The notes under the pieces are model-generated. The model did no database searches, had not been told where the DNA came from, and was given only the letters and a program-made list of their open reading frames with translations. 64,000 nt of DNA. Origin: Candidatus Levyibacteriota bacterium (GTDB taxonomy: Bacteria > Patescibacteriota > Microgenomatia > Levybacterales > GWA1-39-11). Of the stretch, positions 1 through 59,547 are shown piece by piece. The stretch spans positions 9,792 through 73,791 of the forward strand of contig JBCLLY010000002.1 in assembly GCA_039738415.1 (NCBI GenBank), in the 5' to 3' direction. Position numbers and translations under genes: made by a program. Positions within the stretch are counted from its first letter, which is position 1. Every line of letters begins with the position of its first letter.

Positions 1-1726
1 GTTCAGAAAATGGTTCAGTCGGATGCGAGTGGCGTAATATTTACAATTGACCCTATAACAAACAATAAGCAAAGGATTGTTATAGAGGCGATATTTGGGT
101 TAGGTGAATATATAGTTCAAGGCAGACTTACTCCGGATCACTACGAAGTAAATAAGGGGGACTTAAAGATTGTCAGTAAGAATATTGTCGAGCAACCGAT
201 AAGACTTGTGTATAAAAAAGGGGAAAATGTCCGTGATTTTGTACCTGAAAAAGCCAGAAAACTTCAGAAAATTTCAGATCCGCAAATAGAGAAATTAGCA
301 CGTATTGCAAGAGAAATTGAAGCTCATTATTATTTTCCTCAAGACATAGAATGGGCAATTGAAAAGGAGAAGATATATATTGTCCAGACAAGACCTATTA
401 CAACAATTCATAAAAGAGTTGAAAAAGCAGATGATGGAGTAAAAAAGATTAGTATTAGCACTGCCAAAAAAATTCTAGTGGGAGATCCTGCATGTCCGGG
501 AATAGGAATTGGTAGGGTAAAAATTATCCGTACGGTCAAGGATATTTCAAAAGTTGAACAGGGCGATGTAATGGTTGCACCGATGACAAATCCTGACTAT
601 GTTCCCGCTATGAAAAAAGCGGCTGCAATTGTGACCGAGCGGGGGGGGGAGAACATCTCATGCGGCAATTGTTTCAAGAGAATTCGGAATTCCGGCAATA
701 GTAGGTGCGGCAGGTGCAACTAGACGTTTGGTAGAAAATCAAATAGTAACCGTGGATGGGGGCAAGGGTGAAGTTTACCGCGGAAGTGTAGCTATAAAAA
801 GTGCTGAAGAAAGTAAGGGTTCTGAGAATCTAAAGACAGCAACAAGTCTAATGGTAAATATTTCAGAGCCTGAAATTGCAAAAACAGTTGCTTCCCTTCC
901 TGTTGATGGCGTAGGGCTTTTAAGAGCAGAGTTTATGATTGCACAAATCGGTATTCACCCTAAAAAACTAATTGAGGATAAACGCGAGAAGATATTTGTG
1001 GAAAAACTCTCTGAGTCACTAGAGAAAATTTGCTCGGCGTTTTACCCCAGACCCGTACTATATAGAGCAACGGATTTTAAGACAAATGAGTATAGAAATT
1101 TGGTAGGTGGAAAGCAATATGAGCCCGTCGAGAGCAATCCTATGCTAGGTTATAGGGGAGCGTATAGATATATGACAGACCCGGGGGTTTTTAATCTAGA
1201 ACTTCAGGCGATTAAAAATGTCCGAGAAAAAAAAGAATTTACAAATCTCAACTTGATGCTTCCTTTCGTAAGAACTGTTAATGAGCTAAGACAGGTAAAA
1301 AGCATTATTTACAACAGCGGTTTGCGCAGGTCTACGTTATTTAAGCTTTACATGATGGTTGAAATACCTTCAAACGTAATTTTAATTGACGATTTTATAG
1401 AAGAGGGAATAGATGGTGTGTCAATTGGCTCAAATGATTTAACAATGCTAATGCTTGGAATTGACCGCGACAATGAAGAGGTAGCACGTGAATTTGATGA
1501 GCGCGACAAGGCTCTTCTATGGGCTTATGAAAAAGTGATAAAAAGCGCTAACAAACATAAAATTAGCGTTGGAATTTGCGGACAAGCACCATCAAGCTTT
1601 CCCGATTTAGTACAAAAACTTGTTGATTTTGGAATAACTAGCATTTCGGTGTCTCCTGACGCAGTACATCATACCCGTGAAATTATTTATAGAGCAGAGC
1701 ATAATATAATAAAAAGAAATGGCTAA
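1..1726 (+). pseudogene. ppsA: PEP synthase / pyruvate,water dikinase (5' end outside window), frame broken by a 1-nt frameshift in a G9 run
   Basis: ORF 10..723 ends TERGGENISC. Shifting frame after the G run at 641-649 reads [26 protein letters not shown], the phosphohistidine motif. That reading continues into ORF 728..1726, the PEP-utilizing C-terminal domain. Confidence 0.8.
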
Positions 1727-3699: not shown

Positions 3700-4344
3700 T
3701 TAATTGAAGCGGCGTATGAGTCCTACAACTTTTCCCTGAATTTTAAGGTCATTTGGATAAATAGGTTCCATATCGCGGTTTGCCGGCATAAGTACAATAC
3801 GCCCATTCTCTTTCATATATCTTTTAAGTGTTGCTAAATTATCGTCTACCAAAGCAACAACTATATCTCCTTCATCAGCTATATCGGATTTTTCGATTAC
3901 CACATAATCTCCATCCAGTATTCCGTCTTCAATCATCGAATTTCCCTTCACTTGAAGCGCATAGGAAGTTTTTTTACCAGCTAACATGGTTGAAGCTATT
4001 TCAAGAGTTGCTTCAGGGTCTGTATGAGGCTCTAGCGGACTACCTGCTGCAATATATCCCATTAGAGGCAATGCAATAGTAGGTCCAACAGCTCTTGTAA
4101 TATTTCCCAGTATAGCCCCCAATTTATCCTTATTAAGTACCTTAAGAGTCCTGTTATTTCCGTCTACTTTTTGGATATATCCCTTGTCAACGAGTGAACG
4201 GATTAAATTGTGAATCGTAGCGGGGCTTCGCCTATTCATGGCTTTTGCCATTACACGTAGAGTAGGTGAATATCCGTTTCCTTCCTGAAATTGGATTATA
4301 TATTGAAGCAAATCGCGTTCTCTTCTGTATAGCACTGCAGTCAT
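3700..4344 (-). CDS. lexA: LexA repressor (S24 peptidase)
   Basis: It has an N-terminal winged-helix region (GYSPTLRVMAKAM). The C-terminal region carries VKGNSMIEDGILDGDYVVI and LKRY, the Ser/Lys dyad context. It is divergent from uvrB. Confidence 0.9.
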   Translation of the reverse strand: MTAVLYRRERDLLQYIIQFQEGNGYSPTLRVMAKAMNRRSPATIHNLIRSLVDKGYIQKVDGNNRTLKVLNKDKLGAILGNITRAVGPTIALPLMGYIAAGSPLEPHTDPEATLEIASTMLAGKKTSYALQVKGNSMIEDGILDGDYVVIEKSDIADEGDIVVALVDDNLATLKRYMKENGRIVLMPANRDMEPIYPNDLKIQGKVVGLIRRFN

Positions 4345-18053: not shown

Positions 18054-18299
18054 ATGTGGTTCGTTTACATACTCGAGTGTTCCGACAGAACTCTCTTTAC
18101 AGGAATAATAACTAATGTTTTGCGGAGAATTAACGAGCATAATTTAAAAATTGGTGCGAAGTCTTTAAGAGGAAAGTTGCCCGTTAAACTAGTATATAAA
18201 GAATTGTATAATAGTCAAACCAAAGCCGCACAAAGAGAGCGAGAAATTAAAGGGTGGAGGCGAGAAAAGAAATTAAATTTAATTCAGGGTTTACCCTGA
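18054..18299 (+). CDS. GIY-YIG nuclease superfamily protein (UPF0213-like)
   Basis: 81 aa. WFVYILECSDRTLFTGIITNVLRRINEHN...REREIKGWRREKK. It lies between two tRNA genes. Confidence 0.8.
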   Translation: MWFVYILECSDRTLFTGIITNVLRRINEHNLKIGAKSLRGKLPVKLVYKELYNSQTKAAQREREIKGWRREKKLNLIQGLP

Positions 18300-18388: not shown

Positions 18389-18504
18389 CACTTTAACAAT
18401 CTCAGTGTTTCACACTGAGATTGTTGGAGATTGGTCGGGACGAGGAGTTTATCCCGCTGAGCAAAGCGAAGGAACTGAAAGCGGGAAGTCCCTGGTCGCT
18501 CACA
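18373..18504 (+). repeat. direct repeat of the tRNA-Lys 3' end flanking a structured 96-nt spacer
   Basis: AGTCCCTGGTCGCTCACA occurs at 18373-18390 and again at 18487-18504. The spacer holds a perfect 14-bp hairpin (18395-18425) and the motif GGGAC GAGGAGTTTAT CCCGC...GCGGG. Confidence 0.85.
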
Positions 18505-31755: not shown

Positions 31756-31913
31756 ATCTACATAGCGGGCAAATCTATTCTTGTCAGCCAAGGCTGATCC
31801 GCCTCTGGCGGAAGCTACTAGAGCATATGTTATATTTTACCTAAAAAAAATGTAATTTGAAAGTTTTTAAAGCCTAGCAGTTTTTTTAATATGATGCCAA
31901 GTCGGACTCCTTG

Positions 31914-37223: not shown

Positions 37224-37281
37224 TGGACTCGAGGGGATTCGAACCCCTAATCTGTCCGACGTACATCGGGCCGCTCTATAC
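37224..37281 (-). pseudogene. 3' tRNA fragment (D-arm 3' strand to discriminator), degenerate anticodon arm
   Basis: The minus strand reads TATAGAGCG GCCCGATGTACGTCGGAC AGATT AGGGG TTCGAAT CCCCT CGAGTCC A. No matching 5' acceptor strand is present nearby. Confidence 0.5.
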
Positions 37282-37341
37282 TGTGGACCGGATCCCGCTT
37301 AGCGGGACAACCCCTCCATTTTCGCCCCCTAGATTTAACTG

Positions 37342-39026: not shown

Positions 39027-39112
39027 CTTGAAATTCAATTGGGACGAGAAGTTTATCCTGCTGTGCCCGCCTCTGGAGGGAACGAAGTTGAAGGAAGTCC
39101 CGCCCCAGGCAC
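39011..39112 (+). repeat. direct repeat of the tRNA-Leu(UAA) 3' end flanking a 68-nt spacer with the GAGAAGTTTAT motif
   Basis: AGTCCCGCCCCAGGCAC occurs at 39011-39027 and again at 39096-39112. The spacer contains GGGAC GAGAAGTTTAT CCTGC (39041-39061). Confidence 0.85.
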
Positions 39113-49048: not shown

Positions 49049-49393
49049 ATGGAAAAGCATAATAAAAAACCAAGAATGACCACGCCATTTGGAAAATATT
49101 TCCGTAAGCTTGATGAAATTGATTCTGAGCTTAAAAGCTCCAAAGAATTCGGTTCAATTCTAATTTTGTCGCTAGTGGAAGAGATTGGGGAAATGGCACG
49201 GGCATACCTGTCAGAGCATGGACGCAAAAAAACAAATATTGCGGCTCAGAAAGATGAAAGTTATGAACAAGAGCTAGGAGATGTTCTAGTAACCATAATC
49301 CGCTTTGCTAGAATTAAAAATATAGATTTGGATAAAAGAATTCAATATACGCTAGACAAAATTAAAAAAAGAAAAATATCCCCGAAGATATAA
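49049..49393 (+). CDS. MazG-like nucleotide pyrophosphohydrolase domain protein
   Basis: 114 aa. LVEEIGEMARAY...ELGDVLVTIIRFA shows an EExxE/ExxD-type pattern. Confidence 0.55.
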   Translation: MEKHNKKPRMTTPFGKYFRKLDEIDSELKSSKEFGSILILSLVEEIGEMARAYLSEHGRKKTNIAAQKDESYEQELGDVLVTIIRFARIKNIDLDKRIQYTLDKIKKRKISPKI

Positions 49394-49522
49394 CGACTGA
49401 TTTAACAAAATCTTAAATTTCTCCGCCTGCTGCTGGACATGGATCCCCTTCGATTCGCTCAGGGTAAACGAACCGAGATAAACAGCTCCAAAGGCTATCC
49501 CGCCAATTTGTCTTTACCAGAG

Positions 49523-49593
49523 CTACCGGACTTGGATTCGAACCAAGATAAACAGCTCCAAAGGCTGTTGTCCTACCATTAGACGATCCGGTA
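49523..49593 (-). tRNA. tRNA-Gln(UUG)
   Basis: Acceptor TACCGGA/TCCGGTA gives U1:A72, with G73. Anticodon arm ACAGC CTTTGGA GCTGT, T arm CTTGG TTCGAAT CCAAG. Confidence 0.85.
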
Positions 49594-49793
49594 GCCCCAA
49601 CAAAGACAATCTTTAATTGGCGGGACCATTAGACCTGCCCGTAATGCCAACCATTGTTCTTACGTGGCGGGCGGGCGACATCCCAATATCAATTAATCAA
49701 GCGAGTATTAATTGAACTCAAATATTATATCAGCTAACGACTAATTTACCAAAAGTAGCTAACGCCTATAGATAACACCTACGAGGCGATAGT

Positions 49794-50393
49794 TTACTTC
49801 TTCCCTTTATTCTTTCTATAAAAAATTCCAATTAAAACAGAAATTATTACAATATATAACAACTGGTGCGTGGCTCCCTGATATAGATAATTATAACCAA
49901 ATAGATTTAGCTCCAACGGCTTTTGAATTACGTGAATTGAGTATTCTTGAAGCATCTTGGGAAGTGTCACTATTAGAATAAAAATTAAAGCGCCCAGATA
50001 ACGGATTTTTGGTTCATACGAGGCTACAGTTTTTAGGATGTAGTAAAAAAAGAAAAAGTTCTCAAAAATATTTGGGAAGAAAAAAAGAAAAACTCTAACA
50101 TGTGTTACCTCGAATAGCAAAACTCCAATTAATCGAAATGCGAATAAACCCAATGCAACATTTCTTATTAGCTTATTCCCAAATTTGAAAGCAATTATAG
50201 CAAGTAGTGCTAAATAATAAGTATCAAGTATTTTATCAATCGCCTGATATTCAAAAATCGGTTGTATTCCAAACAGCTCCTTTGTGTGCCAATCAATATT
50301 GTCAAGCCATATAGATATTCCTCCACCTATAAGCGGAAATTTAAGAATTGAAAGAGGAAGTATTAGACGAAAAAGTATTATGACGGGATTCAT
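49794..50393 (-). CDS. hypothetical polytopic membrane protein
   Basis: 199 aa with 5-6 TM segments. Confidence 0.4.
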   Translation of the reverse strand: MNPVIILFRLILPLSILKFPLIGGGISIWLDNIDWHTKELFGIQPIFEYQAIDKILDTYYLALLAIIAFKFGNKLIRNVALGLFAFRLIGVLLFEVTHVRVFLFFFPNIFENFFFFYYILKTVASYEPKIRYLGALIFILIVTLPKMLQEYSIHVIQKPLELNLFGYNYLYQGATHQLLYIVIISVLIGIFYRKNKGKK

Positions 50394-53106: not shown

Positions 53107-53187
53107 GCCGAGGTGGTGAAATGGTATACACGCAGCCTTGAGGTGGCTGTGCCGCAAGGCGTGCAGGTTCAAGTCCTGTTCTCGGCA
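53107..53187 (+). tRNA. tRNA-Leu(GAG)
   Basis: Acceptor GCCGAGG/TCTCGGC, anticodon arm CAGCC TTGAGGT GGCTG, long variable arm, T loop TTCAAGT. A TTGTAA-N16-TACAAT promoter lies upstream. Confidence 0.85.
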
Positions 53188-53381
53188 CACTTCGCTTCGT
53201 TCAGTGTAAACTGATTGAGTGAAAGCTTTGGTTTGTAAACTAAAGAATAATGAAGCTTGCTACTTTTAAAATTGCAACGCAATTTGTCATCCCTCCTAGG
53301 CGGGATGAAATGAGGAGAAATGACGAAGCGTAAAGGTTTTAAGCTCTGCTTAAAACCGCTAAGCGGAGTCCACTAGGACAC

Positions 53382-53456
53382 GCGGGGGTAGTTCAGCGGT
53401 AGAACGCTTCCTTGCCAAGGAAGAGGTCGCCGGTTCGAATCCGGTTCCCCGCTCCA
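53382..53456 (+). tRNA. tRNA-Gly(GCC), with encoded CCA
   Basis: Acceptor GCGGGGG/TCCCCGC with U73, followed by CCA (53454-53456). Anticodon arm CTTCC TTGCCAA GGAAG. Confidence 0.85.
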
Positions 53457-53593
53457 GAATTAGAGGTGGGGAATTGGCTTATTGGACATCTTATGACGAT
53501 GGATCAGAAATATGTGCAGTGCTTCCATTGATTAGGAATTTTCGAAAAAGTAGGTTCGAGCCATTATTTTCTACGCACGATAAAAAAATATTT

Positions 53594-53640
53594 TCCTGGT
53601 GATGGGATTCGAACCCATTTGTAAACTGAGACTGAGCTAA
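53594..53640 (-). pseudogene. internally deleted tRNA-like remnant
   Basis: The minus strand reads TTAGCTCAGT CTCAGTTTACAA ATGGG TTCGAAT CCCAT CACCAGG A. The D-arm start, a TAC-containing loop and the T arm are present, but no 5' acceptor strand. Confidence 0.4.
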
Positions 53641-53662
53641 ACAATTTTGGTATACTGCTAAT

Positions 53663-54301
53663 GTGGTAATTGATATACATATTCTTCTTGGTTCGGGACG
53701 CCTTCTTCCATACCAGAGTCAAATTAAAAATCGATTTGATAAATTAATCACAATAGTAAAAAAACAACTGTCGTTAGGCAATGTTGACGTAGTAGTTTAC
53801 GATAACCCTGAAGGTGCTATTCCTGAAATAGGGGTTGGAGGGTATTCGCCTAACGCACATTTAATTTTTATATCTCTTGATCCACAGTTTCCCAATTTTC
53901 AACAGACTATTGATGAAGAATTAAAACGAACAATAGCGCATGAATTACATCACACATTAAGGTGGAGAGATCCAGGATATGGAGAAACCTTATTTGAGGC
54001 GTTAATTACTGAAGGATTAGCTGACCATTTTGATATGGAAGTGAATAATATAGATAATCCTGAGCCTTGGGATACAGCTTTAAGCGACAAACAGCTAGTT
54101 GAGATTAAAGCTAAGGCGCAAAAAGAGTTTGATAATAAGAACTATAATCACAATGAATGGTTTTTTGGATACAAAGAAAAAAATATTCCAAGATGGGCCG
54201 GATATACATTAGGATTTAAACTCGTAGAAGATTATTTGAAAAGGAATCCACATAAAAAACCGTCACAACTCTATAGTGCTCACCCGGAAGATTTTAGATA
54301 A
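53663..54301 (+). CDS. predicted Zn-dependent peptidase (DUF2268/YjaZ-like, HExxH)
   Basis: IAHELHHTLRW...ALITEGLADHF. It has a GTG start 6 nt after TATACT. Confidence 0.55.
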   Translation: MVIDIHILLGSGRLLPYQSQIKNRFDKLITIVKKQLSLGNVDVVVYDNPEGAIPEIGVGGYSPNAHLIFISLDPQFPNFQQTIDEELKRTIAHELHHTLRWRDPGYGETLFEALITEGLADHFDMEVNNIDNPEPWDTALSDKQLVEIKAKAQKEFDNKNYNHNEWFFGYKEKNIPRWAGYTLGFKLVEDYLKRNPHKKPSQLYSAHPEDFR

Positions 54302-54331
54302 TTAGTTTCTAATAAATAAAAGTCGATCCCT

Positions 54332-54498
54332 ACTTCTCGCCCTGCGCTATGTAGGGTGCAACAGCAAACACTAAGTTTATCGAAGTGTGGGCGCTAGAGG
54401 GCTCCCCGATGTTCATCGGGATAAACTTCTCGCCCTCAACTATGTAGGTTGCAACAGCAAACACTGAGTTTATCTAAAGTGTGGGCGCTAGAGGGCTC
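54332..54498 (-). repeat. two-copy tandem repeat (period about 93-94 nt) of the tRNA-Val(UAC) 3' end plus trailer
   Basis: Units 54332-54404 and 54425-54498 differ at about 7 positions. Each ends (tRNA sense: begins) with GAGCCCTCTAGCGCCCACACTT. They are separated by the hairpin CCCGATGAACATCGGG. Confidence 0.85.
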
Positions 54499-54554
54499 GA
54501 ACCCCTGACATTTTCGGTGTAAACGAAACGCTCTACCAGCTGAGCTAAGCGCCC
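54482..54554 (-). tRNA. tRNA-Val(UAC)
   Basis: Acceptor GGGCGCT/AGCGCCC, anticodon arm TTTCG TTTACAC CGAAA, T arm AGGGG TTCGAGC CCTCT. Confidence 0.85.
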
Positions 54555-54639
54555 GACGTCAAAATTAATTTCGCACGTTCGTTTATCGCAAAGCAATAAA
54601 CTTTTCACTCAATCAGTTTACACTGAACGAAGTGAAGTG

Positions 54640-54712
54640 TGCTGAGACCAGGAATCGAACCCGGATAACTTGTTCTTCAGACAAGCGCCTTGACCAACTT
54701 GGCAATCTCAGC
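54640..54712 (-). tRNA. tRNA-Phe(GAA)
   Basis: Acceptor GCTGAGA/TCTCAGC, anticodon arm CTTGT CTGAAGA ACAAG, T arm CCGGG TTCGATT CCTGG. The D arm is atypical (GCCAAGTTGGTCAAGGC). Confidence 0.75.
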
Positions 54713-54824
54713 ATGACTATTGGTTTTTATCAAAAAACTACTTTTAGAATTATACAAAAAGTTAAGCTCAATATCCATATGAACTAATGCATGATGCTAA
54801 AATTGAGGCTATTTGTAAAGGTGT

Positions 54825-55187
54825 TCAGGATAGTTTTCGGGCTCTTCTATAATGAAATATGAACAGAACTGTTCCTACGACTATAAAAGTAATTGCACTC
54901 GCAACATCCGTAACTTTTTTAACTTCTCGCTCGCGGACGAGGTCTTCCTCGCATCTTTTTAATAGGTCGATATTGGATGGAGTTTCTGAACCCTCAACCT
55001 TAACGGGAGCGGGTTCTAAGTAGCTACATCTTCCAGCCTCATAATCAAGATAATAATTATCCAGGAAAAAATTTCTAACCGCAAAATCCGAAAGTTTGAA
55101 TATCCCCATGACCAAAAGGATTATCCCAATTGCTGAAAAAACGTAAAAATAAGCAGTCTTTATAGAATGTCCGAAATCTTTTGCCAT
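54825..55187 (-). CDS. hypothetical two-TM membrane protein
   Basis: 120 aa with N- and C-terminal hydrophobic helices. Confidence 0.4.
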   Translation of the reverse strand: MAKDFGHSIKTAYFYVFSAIGIILLVMGIFKLSDFAVRNFFLDNYYLDYEAGRCSYLEPAPVKVEGSETPSNIDLLKRCEEDLVREREVKKVTDVASAITFIVVGTVLFIFHYRRARKLS

Positions 55188-55244
55188 AAATTAATAATAG
55201 TAAATTCAAACACCAACCGCAATAGCTTTGTTGCCTTTGCGCTG

Positions 55245-55327
55245 TGCTCGAGGGGAGAGTTGAACTCCCACATCATTACTGACACTGGCTCCTGAAGCCA
55301 GCGCGTCTACCATTTCGCCACTCGAGC
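55245..55327 (-). tRNA. tRNA-Leu(CAG)
   Basis: Acceptor GCTCGAG/CTCGAGC, anticodon arm CTGGC TTCAGGA GCCAG, long variable arm, T arm GGGAG TTCAACT CTCCC. Confidence 0.85.
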
Positions 55328-55471
55328 ATTGCGGGCAAGCCATTTAAGCTTATATCAAATTGTATCAATCAAATGCAGTCGAAACAAATCTGAATTTATG
55401 GCTTTATTTTAGTGTTTATCGCGCCCTATCAAGCTAATTTTTTCTTGATTTTCTGTCCTCAATGTGCAACT

Positions 55472-59302: not shown

Positions 59303-59483
59303 GCGCGCATAGCTCAGTGGTAGAGTACTTCATTGACACCTGCCCGCTATGTACTTGGATCTATAGCTCAGTTGGTTAGAGCGTTGCATTGACATTGCAA
59401 AGGTCAGTGGTTCGAGTCCACTTAGATCCACAAGCAAGGCAGGCGGGTCGAAGGGGTCCATGGTTCAAACCCATGTGCGCGCA
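59303..59483 (+). tRNA. tRNA-Val(GAC) interrupted after the anticodon loop by a 109-nt insert (outer gene)
   Basis: The 5' half 59303-59339 and 3' half 59449-59483 share a 7/7 acceptor stem (GCGCGCA/TGCGCGC), an anticodon loop TTGACAC and a T arm CATGG TTCAAAC CCATG. Joined, they give 72 nt. Confidence 0.65.
59357..59430 (+). tRNA. tRNA-Val(GAC) (inner gene, complete)
   Basis: Acceptor GGATCTA/TAGATCC, anticodon arm TTGCA TTGACAT TGCAA, T arm AGTGG TTCGAGT CCACT. Confidence 0.85.
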
Positions 59484-59547
59484 CTACTCCAAGGTCATCC
59501 CGCTAAGGGGGATCAGGCGAGCATTTTTAATTTTTAATTATTCTTCA

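Follow-up and report, generated by a model that had tools for sequence, protein, structure and literature searches.

The stretch of DNA analyzed here (64,000 nucleotides, below referred to as the window; GC content ~36%) carries 16 scattered tRNA genes, one of which, a tRNA-Gln(UUG) gene enclosed by a long leader/trailer helix, lies inside the fragments of another tRNA-Gln gene. The window displays several bacterial marks (U1:A72 in tRNA-Gln, an encoded G-1 on tRNA-His, and an Obg gene), and the named homologues of its Obg and HD-hydrolase proteins belong to Levybacteria and other Patescibacteria (Candidate Phyla Radiation, CPR). A scan of the genome collection with Obg yielded best matches of 50% identity (Levyibacteriota) and no usable orthologous loci. 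The comparison was based on two syntenic relatives, the contigs L083 and L081 (proteins 70-85% identical), and on further metagenome contigs, likewise designated by L numbers, several of them with the same tRNA-Gln core as that of the window. The features of the tRNA-Gln locus, from the promoter onward, are:

49724-49752, minus strand: promoter-like site (TTGGTA, 17-nucleotide (nt) spacer, TATAAT, with TG before the -10 element), the only such site in 49350-49850
49689-49717, minus strand: leader hairpin of the native gene (GTTCAATTA...TAATTGA), lying between the promoter and nt 1 of the native tRNA, collinear with relatives
49676-49685, minus strand: nt 1-10 of the outer tRNA-Gln (TGGGATGTCG), identical to the 5' end of plain tRNA-Gln in L094, L103, L110, L093 and L090, in the equivalent place after the leader
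49634-49675, plus strand: 42-nt GC-rich hairpin without cargo (CCTGCCCGTAATGC...ACGTGGCGGGCGGG; minimum free energy (MFE) -14.6), between outer nt 10 and 11, antisense to the tRNA
49625-49633, minus strand: nt 11-19 of the outer tRNA-Gln (TCTAATGGT, the 3' part of the D stem-loop), with an equivalent arrangement in L090 and L129
49499-49624, minus strand: helix-bounded unit of 126 nt (the Gln cassette), interrupting the D-loop of the native gene
49594-49624, minus strand: 5' arm (leader) of the cassette (CCCGCCAATTAAAGATTGTCTTTGTTGGGGC), delineated by the sequence, RNAfold, the inverted repeat and pairing counts
49523-49593, minus strand: inner, intact tRNA-Gln(UUG), acceptor stem TACCGGA/TCCGGTA, G73, CCA not encoded
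49499-49522, minus strand: 3' arm (trailer) of the cassette (CTCTGGTAAAGACAAATTGGCGGG), pairing with the leader
49469-49498, minus strand: nt ~26-57 of the outer tRNA-Gln (ATAGCCTTTGGAGCTGTTTATCTCGGTTCG), including a 28-nt repeat of the inner gene; aligns to the native tRNA of L110 after removal of the insert
49429-49468, minus strand: terminal stretch (tail) of the outer gene, interpretable as a decayed T-loop and 3' end (by gapped alignment) or as a remnant of the 5' untranslated region and ATG of a GIY-YIG nuclease gene; the parse is uncertain

The inner gene, identified as tRNA-Gln(UUG) in an earlier sequence-only reading of this DNA, is a canonical bacterial tRNA-Gln, and both ARAGORN (tRNA-Gln(ttg), 49522-49593, minus strand) and the Rfam tRNA model (49523-49593, 63.5 bits) agree with this assignment; we presume it to be the functional gene. 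Folding of 49495-49630 (minus strand) with RNAfold, a check suggested by the same reading, produced the cloverleaf with an acceptor stem continued by 15-16 pairs (several of them G:U), a 6-nt bulge, and 10-12 GC-rich pairs, a total extension of ~26 base pairs (bp). The MFE of this fold is -64.7 kcal/mol vs. -35.6 +/- 3.6 kcal/mol in 200 shuffles (z = -8.1, 0/200 as good). Thus, the long helix anticipated from the letters alone was confirmed, with ~16 pairs up to the 6-nt bulge, while its outermost portion proved slightly longer than the nine pairs originally counted, the outer arms forming a perfect 11-nt inverted repeat (TCCCGCCAATT/AATTGGCGGGA, at 49498-49508 and 49615-49625). The sense strand forms 25 pairs, five of them G:U (-29.7 kcal/mol), and the antisense strand 18 pairs (-24.0 kcal/mol). 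Within the window, the leader/trailer duplex reaches -30 kcal/mol vs. -5 to -25 kcal/mol for the other 15 tRNAs, the nearest being tRNA-Val(GAC). In a comparison with 130 tRNAs of related contigs (median -12.5 kcal/mol) it was again the strongest, and values below -26 kcal/mol were observed only for nested genes (-41.0 for the Gln gene of the window, -39.7 in L112, L115 and L122, -34.5 in L089, and -26.9 for the Val gene of the window). Strong leader/trailer pairing being confined to nested genes, the helix is a property of the inserted unit rather than of tRNA-Gln. It very likely matters at the RNA level as well; no RNase III signature was found within the window.

The equivalent place in four related contigs (L083, L094, L103, and L110) is occupied by a plain tRNA-Gln gene (acceptor TGGGA[T/C]G) that follows the promoter TAGCTGATATAAT and a small leader hairpin, with neither a flanking helix nor a partial copy. 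The promoter block TTAGCTGATATAAT is conserved upstream of these plain genes, and the upstream 100 nt together with the first 10 nt of the native tRNA are 73-84% identical to the window. The helix is thus not a conserved feature of the gene, and the same inverted repeats, which the sequence-only reading had suggested looking for around tRNA-Gln in relatives, are missing at the equivalent promoter. Two interpretations of the helix had been offered by the sequence-only reading; the inverted-repeat cassette holds, as an insertion at a site that is plain in relatives, whereas a processing stem of the rRNA type loses its place as the primary explanation, since the helix is not conserved.

The direct repeat of 28 nt that had been noticed between 49469-49496 and 49539-49566 is real (27/28 identical) and spans tRNA positions 28-55, from the anticodon arm through the variable region and the 5' strand of the T stem to the beginning of the T loop. 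It is not, however, a partial copy of the gene's own interior, as had been thought, but a fragment of the displaced native tRNA-Gln, flanked by other pieces of the latter, of which the two upstream 5' pieces (TGGGATGTCG at 49685-49676 and TCTAATGGT at 49633-49625) had been overlooked. When joined, the outer pieces reproduce the tRNA-Gln of relatives minus ~7 nt (AGGACAA, at the junction) and with a damaged 3' end. The acceptor stems of the inner (TACCGGA) and native (TGGGATG) genes differ at five of seven positions. These comparisons establish that the 126-nt unit was inserted into the D-loop of an older tRNA gene having the same anticodon, and that it brought along a complete tRNA-Gln(UUG). 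The outer gene, being truncated, interrupted by a second insert, and decayed at its 3' end, cannot make a tRNA. No promoter-like site was detected inside the cassette (49350-49850 examined), so that transcription of the inner tRNA would start at the native promoter and yield a precursor beginning ~125 nt upstream of this tRNA. The tail of the outer gene resembles the sequence CCTGAGCG..TCGAAGG..ATG that precedes a GIY-YIG gene downstream of tRNA-Gln in L090 and L120; such a gene may once have stood here and since been lost. The tail also shares a 15/16-nt match, unlikely to be due to chance, with the 3' exon of an outer tRNA-Val gene discussed below (TCGAAGGGG(A)TCCATG, 49453-49438, minus strand, and 59448-59463, plus strand). 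Two other parses of the locus were rejected, namely a diverged second leader followed by a TTACGGGC acceptor in the upstream stretch (this is the 42-nt hairpin, and the true outer 5' end is TGGGATGTCG), and a tandem duplication, in view of the nested order of the pieces, acceptors differing at 5/7 positions, and unrepeated spacers (e.g., in L258).

A second nest of the same architecture is present in the window at tRNA-Val(GAC), and its locus can be followed in four related contigs:

59303-59338 and 59448-59484, plus strand: outer tRNA-Val(GAC), still intact, broken at position 37/38 by a 109-nt insert
59339-59447, plus strand: Val cassette (CCTGCCCGCTATGTACTT ... AAGCAAGGCAGGCGGG), 109 nt, with the inner tRNA-Val(GAC) at 59357-59431
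Val(GAC) locus of L259: plain gene
Val(GAC) locus of L258: complete gene, then a decayed old 3' half
Val(GAC) locus of L261: ortholog of the Val nest of the window
Val(GAC) locus of L260: three generations, the middle copy having a 36-nt hairpin without cargo in its D-loop

Exact removal of the Val insert, whose ends are CCTGCCCGC...GGCAGGCGGG, yields a second well-formed tRNA-Val(GAC), and the predicted fold of the whole region is one cloverleaf enclosed in another. Parallel nests of Gln in Gln were found in L089 and in L112, L115 and L122, where a tRNA-Gln is contained in a 118-nt insert between positions 36 and 37 of an intact outer tRNA-Gln; in L112 there are three Gln layers, the outermost being a wrecked tRNA-Gln. 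In the Val nest of the window, in L089 and in L112, removal of the insert from CCYGCC to GGCRGG leaves an outer tRNA that is valid by ARAGORN and has an unchanged anticodon (the sequences were spliced by hand, as the intron mode of ARAGORN missed the outer genes). A comparison of the orthologous Val nests separates the fates of the two copies: the inner genes of the window and L261 are identical at 72 of 75 positions, two of the three changes forming a compensatory T-stem pair, while the outer 3' halves agree at 29 of 36 positions, with an indel and a loss of U33 and of the T arm in L261, and ARAGORN finds no tRNA in the spliced outer Val of L261. Thus, the outer copies are pseudogenes of different ages, and the inner copy is the working gene. 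Cargo and target share the anticodon throughout (Gln within Gln across three layers and two insert families; Val within Val across three generations), and the GC-rich complementary ends of the inserts in the parallel nests, CCYGCCCG...GCAGGCGGG, run on into the acceptor stem of the cargo tRNA.

The same ends are also encountered without cargo. The Val insert and the Gln inserts of the parallel nests start with CCTGCCCG(C/A)(C/T) and end with GCAGGCGGG, and cargo-less hairpins of 32-66 nt carry these ends as well, with the consensus CCTGCCCGC[A/T]ATGC-loop-GCGTTGCAGGCGGG. Nine of the 11 distinct cargo-less copies reside within dead 5' fragments of tRNA genes, in both orientations, which points to insertion at the DNA level. 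A recurrent site is position 10/11, which is occupied in tRNA-Gln (in the window, in L090, and twice in L129), in Leu-tag (L259) and in Leu-gag (L260); in L260 such hairpins are also found at 13/14, 18/19, and 20/21. Within the window, two inserts belong clearly to this family, namely the 42-nt hairpin at 49634-49675 and the Val cassette; the Gln cassette, whose ends resemble only the inner part of the consensus, is a probable member. The Gln cassette does have terminal inverted repeats (perfect over 11 nt), as a transposon or a miniature inverted-repeat transposable element (MITE) would.

Among other occurrences of hairpins, L129 contains two modules composed of tRNA-Gln nt 1-10, a 64-66-nt hairpin, and TTTAATGGT, located on opposite strands 3.6 kb apart (320-410, minus strand, and 3975-4062, plus strand); the second is followed by a degraded GIY-YIG gene and then by a complete tRNA-Gln. 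In L260 (5535-5700, plus strand) three hairpins follow one another, two of them within an old 5' fragment of tRNA-Leu(tag), and the trio is immediately followed by a GIY-YIG gene and by a complete tRNA-Leu(tag), which is equipped with a TATAAT box of its own. Two other leaders in the window resemble the 5' arm of the family, that of tRNA-Arg(tct) (TTTGCCCGCTATGTAGAT; 31756-31830, minus strand), upstream of which there is what may be the decayed 5' end of a tRNA, together with a mini-hairpin (GCTCTAGTAGCT, TCCGCCAGAGGCGGA, TCAGCC), and that of tRNA-Leu(cag) (CTTGCCCGCAAT; 55328-55345, minus strand), with ATTGCGG located 20 nt after the gene. Viral contigs gave no match to the tRNA-Gln core, and BLAST of the cassette against phage and plasmid collections returned generic tRNA-Gln similarity over the tRNA part and nothing for the arms. 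The 120 viral matches to the pattern CCTGCCCG-N85-115-GCAGGCGGG were dismissed as chance, all of them being in GC-rich phages and none with a tRNA.

Small genes for GIY-YIG nucleases (65-90 amino acids, catalytic domain only; PF01541, E-values down to 1e-18) accompany tRNA genes in this lineage. The window contains one of them:

18054-18299, plus strand: gene for an 81-amino-acid GIY-YIG nuclease (PF01541, E = 7.7e-17), between tRNA-Arg(tcg) and tRNA-Lys(ctt)

In the contigs compared, 12 of 23 GIY-YIG open reading frames (ORFs) are at most 150 nt away from a tRNA gene. In L129, L259 and L260 the nuclease gene (degraded in L129) is embedded in an old tRNA copy that has hairpins in its D arm and a break within this arm or directly behind it; a new complete tRNA comes next. 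GIY-YIG genes in or beside tRNA genes are also found in L090, L112 and L120, and their presence varies among orthologous sites. The start of the gene at 18054 (ATGTGGTTCGTTTAC) shares 11 nt with the break point in the T-loop of the old Gln gene (CGGTTCGTTTAC, ~49477-49466). We infer the 81-amino-acid protein to be a candidate trans-acting nuclease of the system; the 126-nt Gln cassette itself contains no ORF.

Overall, we consider it reasonably probable, although not beyond serious doubt, that a mobile, hairpin-bounded tRNA replacement cassette entered the native tRNA-Gln gene and took its place, and that such replacement is recurrent in CPR bacteria. The cassette would belong to, or derive from, a family of small DNA elements bounded by hairpins, which enter the loops of tRNA genes and for which we infer an insertion enzyme. 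In a single-copy essential gene, an insertion would survive only if it supplied a substitute tRNA (or the respective part) of the same identity, and such selection would explain why cargo always matches target. The same match could alternatively result from the spread of an existing nest by homologous recombination in the conserved tRNA halves. The G:U-rich helix, stronger on the sense strand, would probably shield the inner cloverleaf from the near-identical outer fragments. An acceptor stem extended by ~26 bp is a poor substrate for RNase P and RNase Z and a good one for a double-strand RNase, so that a first cut of the RNase III type would be expected from the predicted structure, after which RNase P, RNase Z and the CCA-adding enzyme would complete the maturation. 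As for the DNA breaks that admit the units, these would most plausibly be made by the small GIY-YIG nucleases in or beside the tRNA genes, which would act in a manner of mobile endonuclease ORFs carrying a replacement piece of the target gene.

A more far-reaching proposal, which we put forward as a tentative possibility that falls short of an even chance, is that we are dealing with undescribed selfish DNA of Levybacteria-like Patescibacteria that parasitizes tRNA genes. It would comprise the CCYGCCCG...GCAGGCGGG hairpins and the 65-90-amino-acid GIY-YIG nucleases, break D, anticodon or T loops, and deliver a same-identity substitute tRNA or a part of it, usually with a new acceptor stem, the cell becoming dependent on it afterwards.

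Several observations weigh against the cassette interpretation or limit its reach. The arms of the Gln cassette (CCCGCCAATT.../...AATTGGCGGG) only resemble the family consensus, its ends (CCCGCCAAT/ATTGGCGGG) matching only the inner part of the latter (CCCGC-AAT / TTG..GCGGG), and no second copy of these arms was found in the window or in any related locus. There is no target-site duplication at the Gln junctions, where ~7 nt of the target are lost, making the insertion chemistry unreadable at this site. The link between nuclease and hairpins is one of co-location, and the Gln locus of the window is devoid of a GIY-YIG gene, the nearest being that at 18054. The loci were gathered with a tRNA-Gln probe and from tRNA-rich neighborhoods, which biases the frequencies. 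Finally, a filled/empty polymorphism within one species was not found: the sole other assembly with the Gln locus is identical to the window, and a contig of another sample ends just short of this locus.

Partial copies of tRNA genes are a related type of scar; ~20 of 105 distinct tRNA loci display copies running from a loop (T-loop 56-58, D-loop 20/21, or anticodon loop) to the end of the gene. Partial copies in the window include:

18390-18503: tRNA-Lys(ctt), perfect 17-18-nt copy from the T-loop to the 3' end, 68-97 nt downstream
39028-39112: tRNA-Leu(taa), the same type of copy in the same size and distance range
54387-54480: tRNA-Val(tac), the same type of copy in the same size and distance range
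37232-37340: tRNA-Ala(ggc), 17-nt copy of the T arm, 92 nt downstream

The spacers at Lys, Leu(taa) and Val(tac) share a common motif, GRCGAGRAGTTTATCC / GGGACGAGRAGTTTATCC (GAGGGCGAGAAGTTTATCC in Val-tac), along with small CCCGC/GCGGG hairpins. We read these partial copies as products of the same turnover process as the nests, at other breakpoints. In related contigs, a 9-10-nt copy of the tRNA-Gln 5' end is located 10-21 nt upstream of the gene in four groups (L096/L118/L126/L127, L104/L132, L136, and L108/L111/L117; e.g., TGCGGGATC-ACCCTTTTGA-TGCGGGATCG), and L096 and L100 have a perfect copy of the tRNA-Gln 3' end 163-170 nt downstream.

The alternative with the best claim among those considered, which we nevertheless judge unlikely, explains the locus by scars of break repair with no mobile cassette: a nuclease (e.g., of the GIY-YIG type) or a replication accident would break a tRNA gene, followed by copying of a homologous tRNA gene from a related cell's incoming DNA via one-ended homology and end joining. 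Foreign tRNA copies, whether partial or complete, would thereby come to lie beside displaced native pieces, the hairpin ends being incidental. It would account for the abundance of the loop-to-end partial copies described above, for spacers that begin like ordinary tRNA trailers, and for GIY-YIG genes adjoining tRNAs, and tRNA genes would provide the best homology anchors between diverged genomes. Random junctions, however, would not be expected to give clean nested inserts whose exact removal restores the outer gene, nor conserved 9-10-nt ends shared across Val and Gln cargo, across genomes, and with cargo-less hairpins. An integrase is still less attractive as the agent. The 17-18-nt 3'-end copies at Lys, Leu-taa and Val-tac are the only ones with a form of attachment (att) sites, and tRNA loops flanked by symmetric stems are classic crossover sites, both of which speak for remnants of a prophage or another integrative element whose body was deleted; but the Gln and Val nest junctions have no duplicated core, the displaced Gln piece is internal (28-55) and does not reach an intact 3' end, and the insert spans just 109-126 nt and carries a whole tRNA. 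With no integrase ORF in the 7 kb listed around the Gln locus and generic tRNA similarity alone in the phage and plasmid collections, we regard this scenario as quite improbable.

Even lower in probability is an intron-like insert, where the outer tRNA would be spliced (in archaeal style or by RNase III and a ligase) to give two tRNAs per transcript, with the helix as a splicing or processing signal. The inserts do lie in loops at intron-like positions (36/37, 37/38, and the D-loop), their helix-closed shape leaves the outer cloverleaf foldable, the outer genes of L089, L112 and the Val nest of the window are intact after exact removal, and Patescibacteria are rich in introns (PMC13011429). 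Yet the outer Gln of the window lacks ~7 nt of the D arm, holds a second insert and has a decayed 3' end; the outer Val of L261 has lost the T arm and U33, in contrast to its inner gene, which shows conservation and a compensatory change; L112 and L260 have wrecked outermost layers; and the cargo-less hairpins occur in both orientations, none of them interrupting an otherwise live tRNA in ~450 kb. Inspection by eye of the junctions in L089, L112 and the Val nest revealed no bulge-helix-bulge, nor a pair of 3-nt bulges 4 bp apart, as the CCUGCC/GGCGGG helix borders on the exons through single-stranded stretches of unequal length (5 nt and 2 nt). There was also no Rfam match to a group I intron at E <= 1, and the inserts (42-126 nt) are shorter than group I introns (> ~200 nt); indeed, Rfam applied to the whole window, at the gathering score and at E <= 1, returned the 16 tRNAs and weak chance matches only. 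Hammerhead and other small ribozymes were considered by eye for the spacers and dropped. Equally hard to sustain is an ordinary tRNA gene with an rRNA-like leader/trailer processing stem and a partial duplication by chance or slippage: whereas the great stability of the helix, its continuity with the acceptor stem and its G:U pairs would suit an RNA-level role, relatives with the matching promoter and leader have a plain tRNA-Gln without it, the helix is found only in nested genes, and the supposed duplicate is flanked by other parts of a second tRNA-Gln in the correct order.

Other variable arrangements were observed around tRNA genes of this lineage. A compact same-strand cluster of Leu(gag), Val(tac), Phe(gaa) and Gly(gcc) in L083 (16901-17229, spacers of 3-17 nt) corresponds in the window (53107-55327) to genes spread over 1.6 kb, two of them inverted, with inserts in between; Phe(gaa) and Leu(gag) of the window have in common a 35-nt trailer hairpin, ACTTC[A/G]CTTCGTTCAGTGTAAACTGATTGAGTGAA. 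In L259 (14309-14677, plus strand) a gene annotated as "23S rRNA intervening-sequence protein" (PF05635) is inserted between pheS and pheT, a place where it is absent from L258 and L260, and represents another variable small insert of the lineage.

The cassette interpretation has a close precedent in organelles. Mobile endonuclease ORFs of mitochondrial genes (atp6 in Allomyces macrogynus; atp6, atp9, cox2 and nad3 in Glomus) supply a new end of the invaded gene, which displaces the native end (PMC3630166). As in these, an essential gene is disrupted, a foreign copy of the displaced part is supplied, and the native part is left as a diverging remnant; the unit includes a small endonuclease gene both there (GIY-YIG in the atp9 case) and here in L129, L259 and L260. 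The present case differs in its setting, a bacterial chromosome with tRNA targets where nesting of a whole gene is possible, and in that the Gln unit of the window lacks an endonuclease gene and has a hairpin-forming repeat at its boundaries, the role of a nuclease here being a prediction. Another parallel is offered by SegB of phage T4, a free-standing GIY-YIG homing endonuclease encoded in the phage tRNA cluster and thought to favor its own tRNA region by cutting the rival allele (PMC2330249). Both share a GIY-YIG gene among tRNA genes; SegB, however, is a phage protein, whereas the proteins reported here are cellular, with 65-90 amino acids and the catalytic domain only, and neither nested tRNAs nor hairpin elements are described for T4. 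In length, too, SegB exceeds these proteins, and it has a putative DNA-binding part.

Among archaea, tRNA introns and split or permuted tRNA genes also involve short helix-closed inserts at several positions, in some genes more than one, with conserved ends and variable interiors, and leader/trailer helices that extend the acceptor stem. A splicing endonuclease excises the archaeal introns at a bulge-helix-bulge motif, and their exons stay under selection; in our case, in a bacterial host, this motif was not seen and the outer genes undergo decay. The repetitive extragenic palindromic (REP) sequences, the REP doublets forming hairpins (REPIN) and MITE-like repeats are GC-rich imperfect palindromes of ~35 nt present in many copies in either orientation, and 23S rRNA intervening sequences are excised by RNase III, for which a helix-closed insert in a structured RNA gene is a natural substrate. 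The hairpin inserts in structured RNA genes described here are comparable to all of these. They differ from REP/REPIN and MITE-like repeats in that no REP-associated tyrosine transposase (RAYT) or other transposase was found, in targeting tRNA genes, mainly in the D arm, and in that some copies hold a complete tRNA in the loop; and unlike fragmented 23S rRNA, a tRNA cut in its loop cannot stay functional. Group I introns are known to interrupt tRNA genes of Patescibacteria (PMC13011429). The phylum and an interruption in the anticodon loop are common to both cases, whereas those introns are precisely self-splicing ribozymes and the inserts here measure 32-126 nt; nested tRNAs or duplications are not mentioned in that study (PMC13011429). 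Full-text literature searches yielded no description of nested tRNA genes or of these hairpins. Organelles already offer examples of the general principle, an invader equipped with a spare copy of the part that it breaks, while its use in bacterial tRNA genes, the nesting of whole genes, and the hairpin family appear to be new.

These findings have consequences for the annotation and evolutionary analysis of tRNA genes in this lineage. Existing tRNA finders report the inner gene only, leaving outer wrecks, hairpins and partial copies unannotated or mistaken for att sites and duplications. The tRNA genes of these bacteria have been repeatedly replaced, at least one of the replacements being younger than the split from relatives with 70-85% identical proteins. 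Such replacement would account for the finding that, between close relatives, orthologous tRNA-Gln genes diverge mostly in the acceptor stem, and would complicate the use of tRNA identity elements and tRNA phylogeny in CPR bacteria. The release of a cargo tRNA from a precursor extended by ~26 bp provides a concrete substrate for studies of tRNA maturation in reduced CPR cells. If the proposed partnership of hairpins and GIY-YIG nucleases is true, it would constitute a bacterial RNA-gene counterpart of the mitochondrial mobile endonuclease ORFs and would point to a testable function of the free-standing GIY-YIG proteins of ~80 amino acids, which are very common. The leader/trailer helix would then be the element's own hairpin, reused in RNA for the release of the cargo tRNA, and repeated rounds of invasion would give rise to "Russian-doll" tRNA genes and to a fast turnover of acceptor stems.

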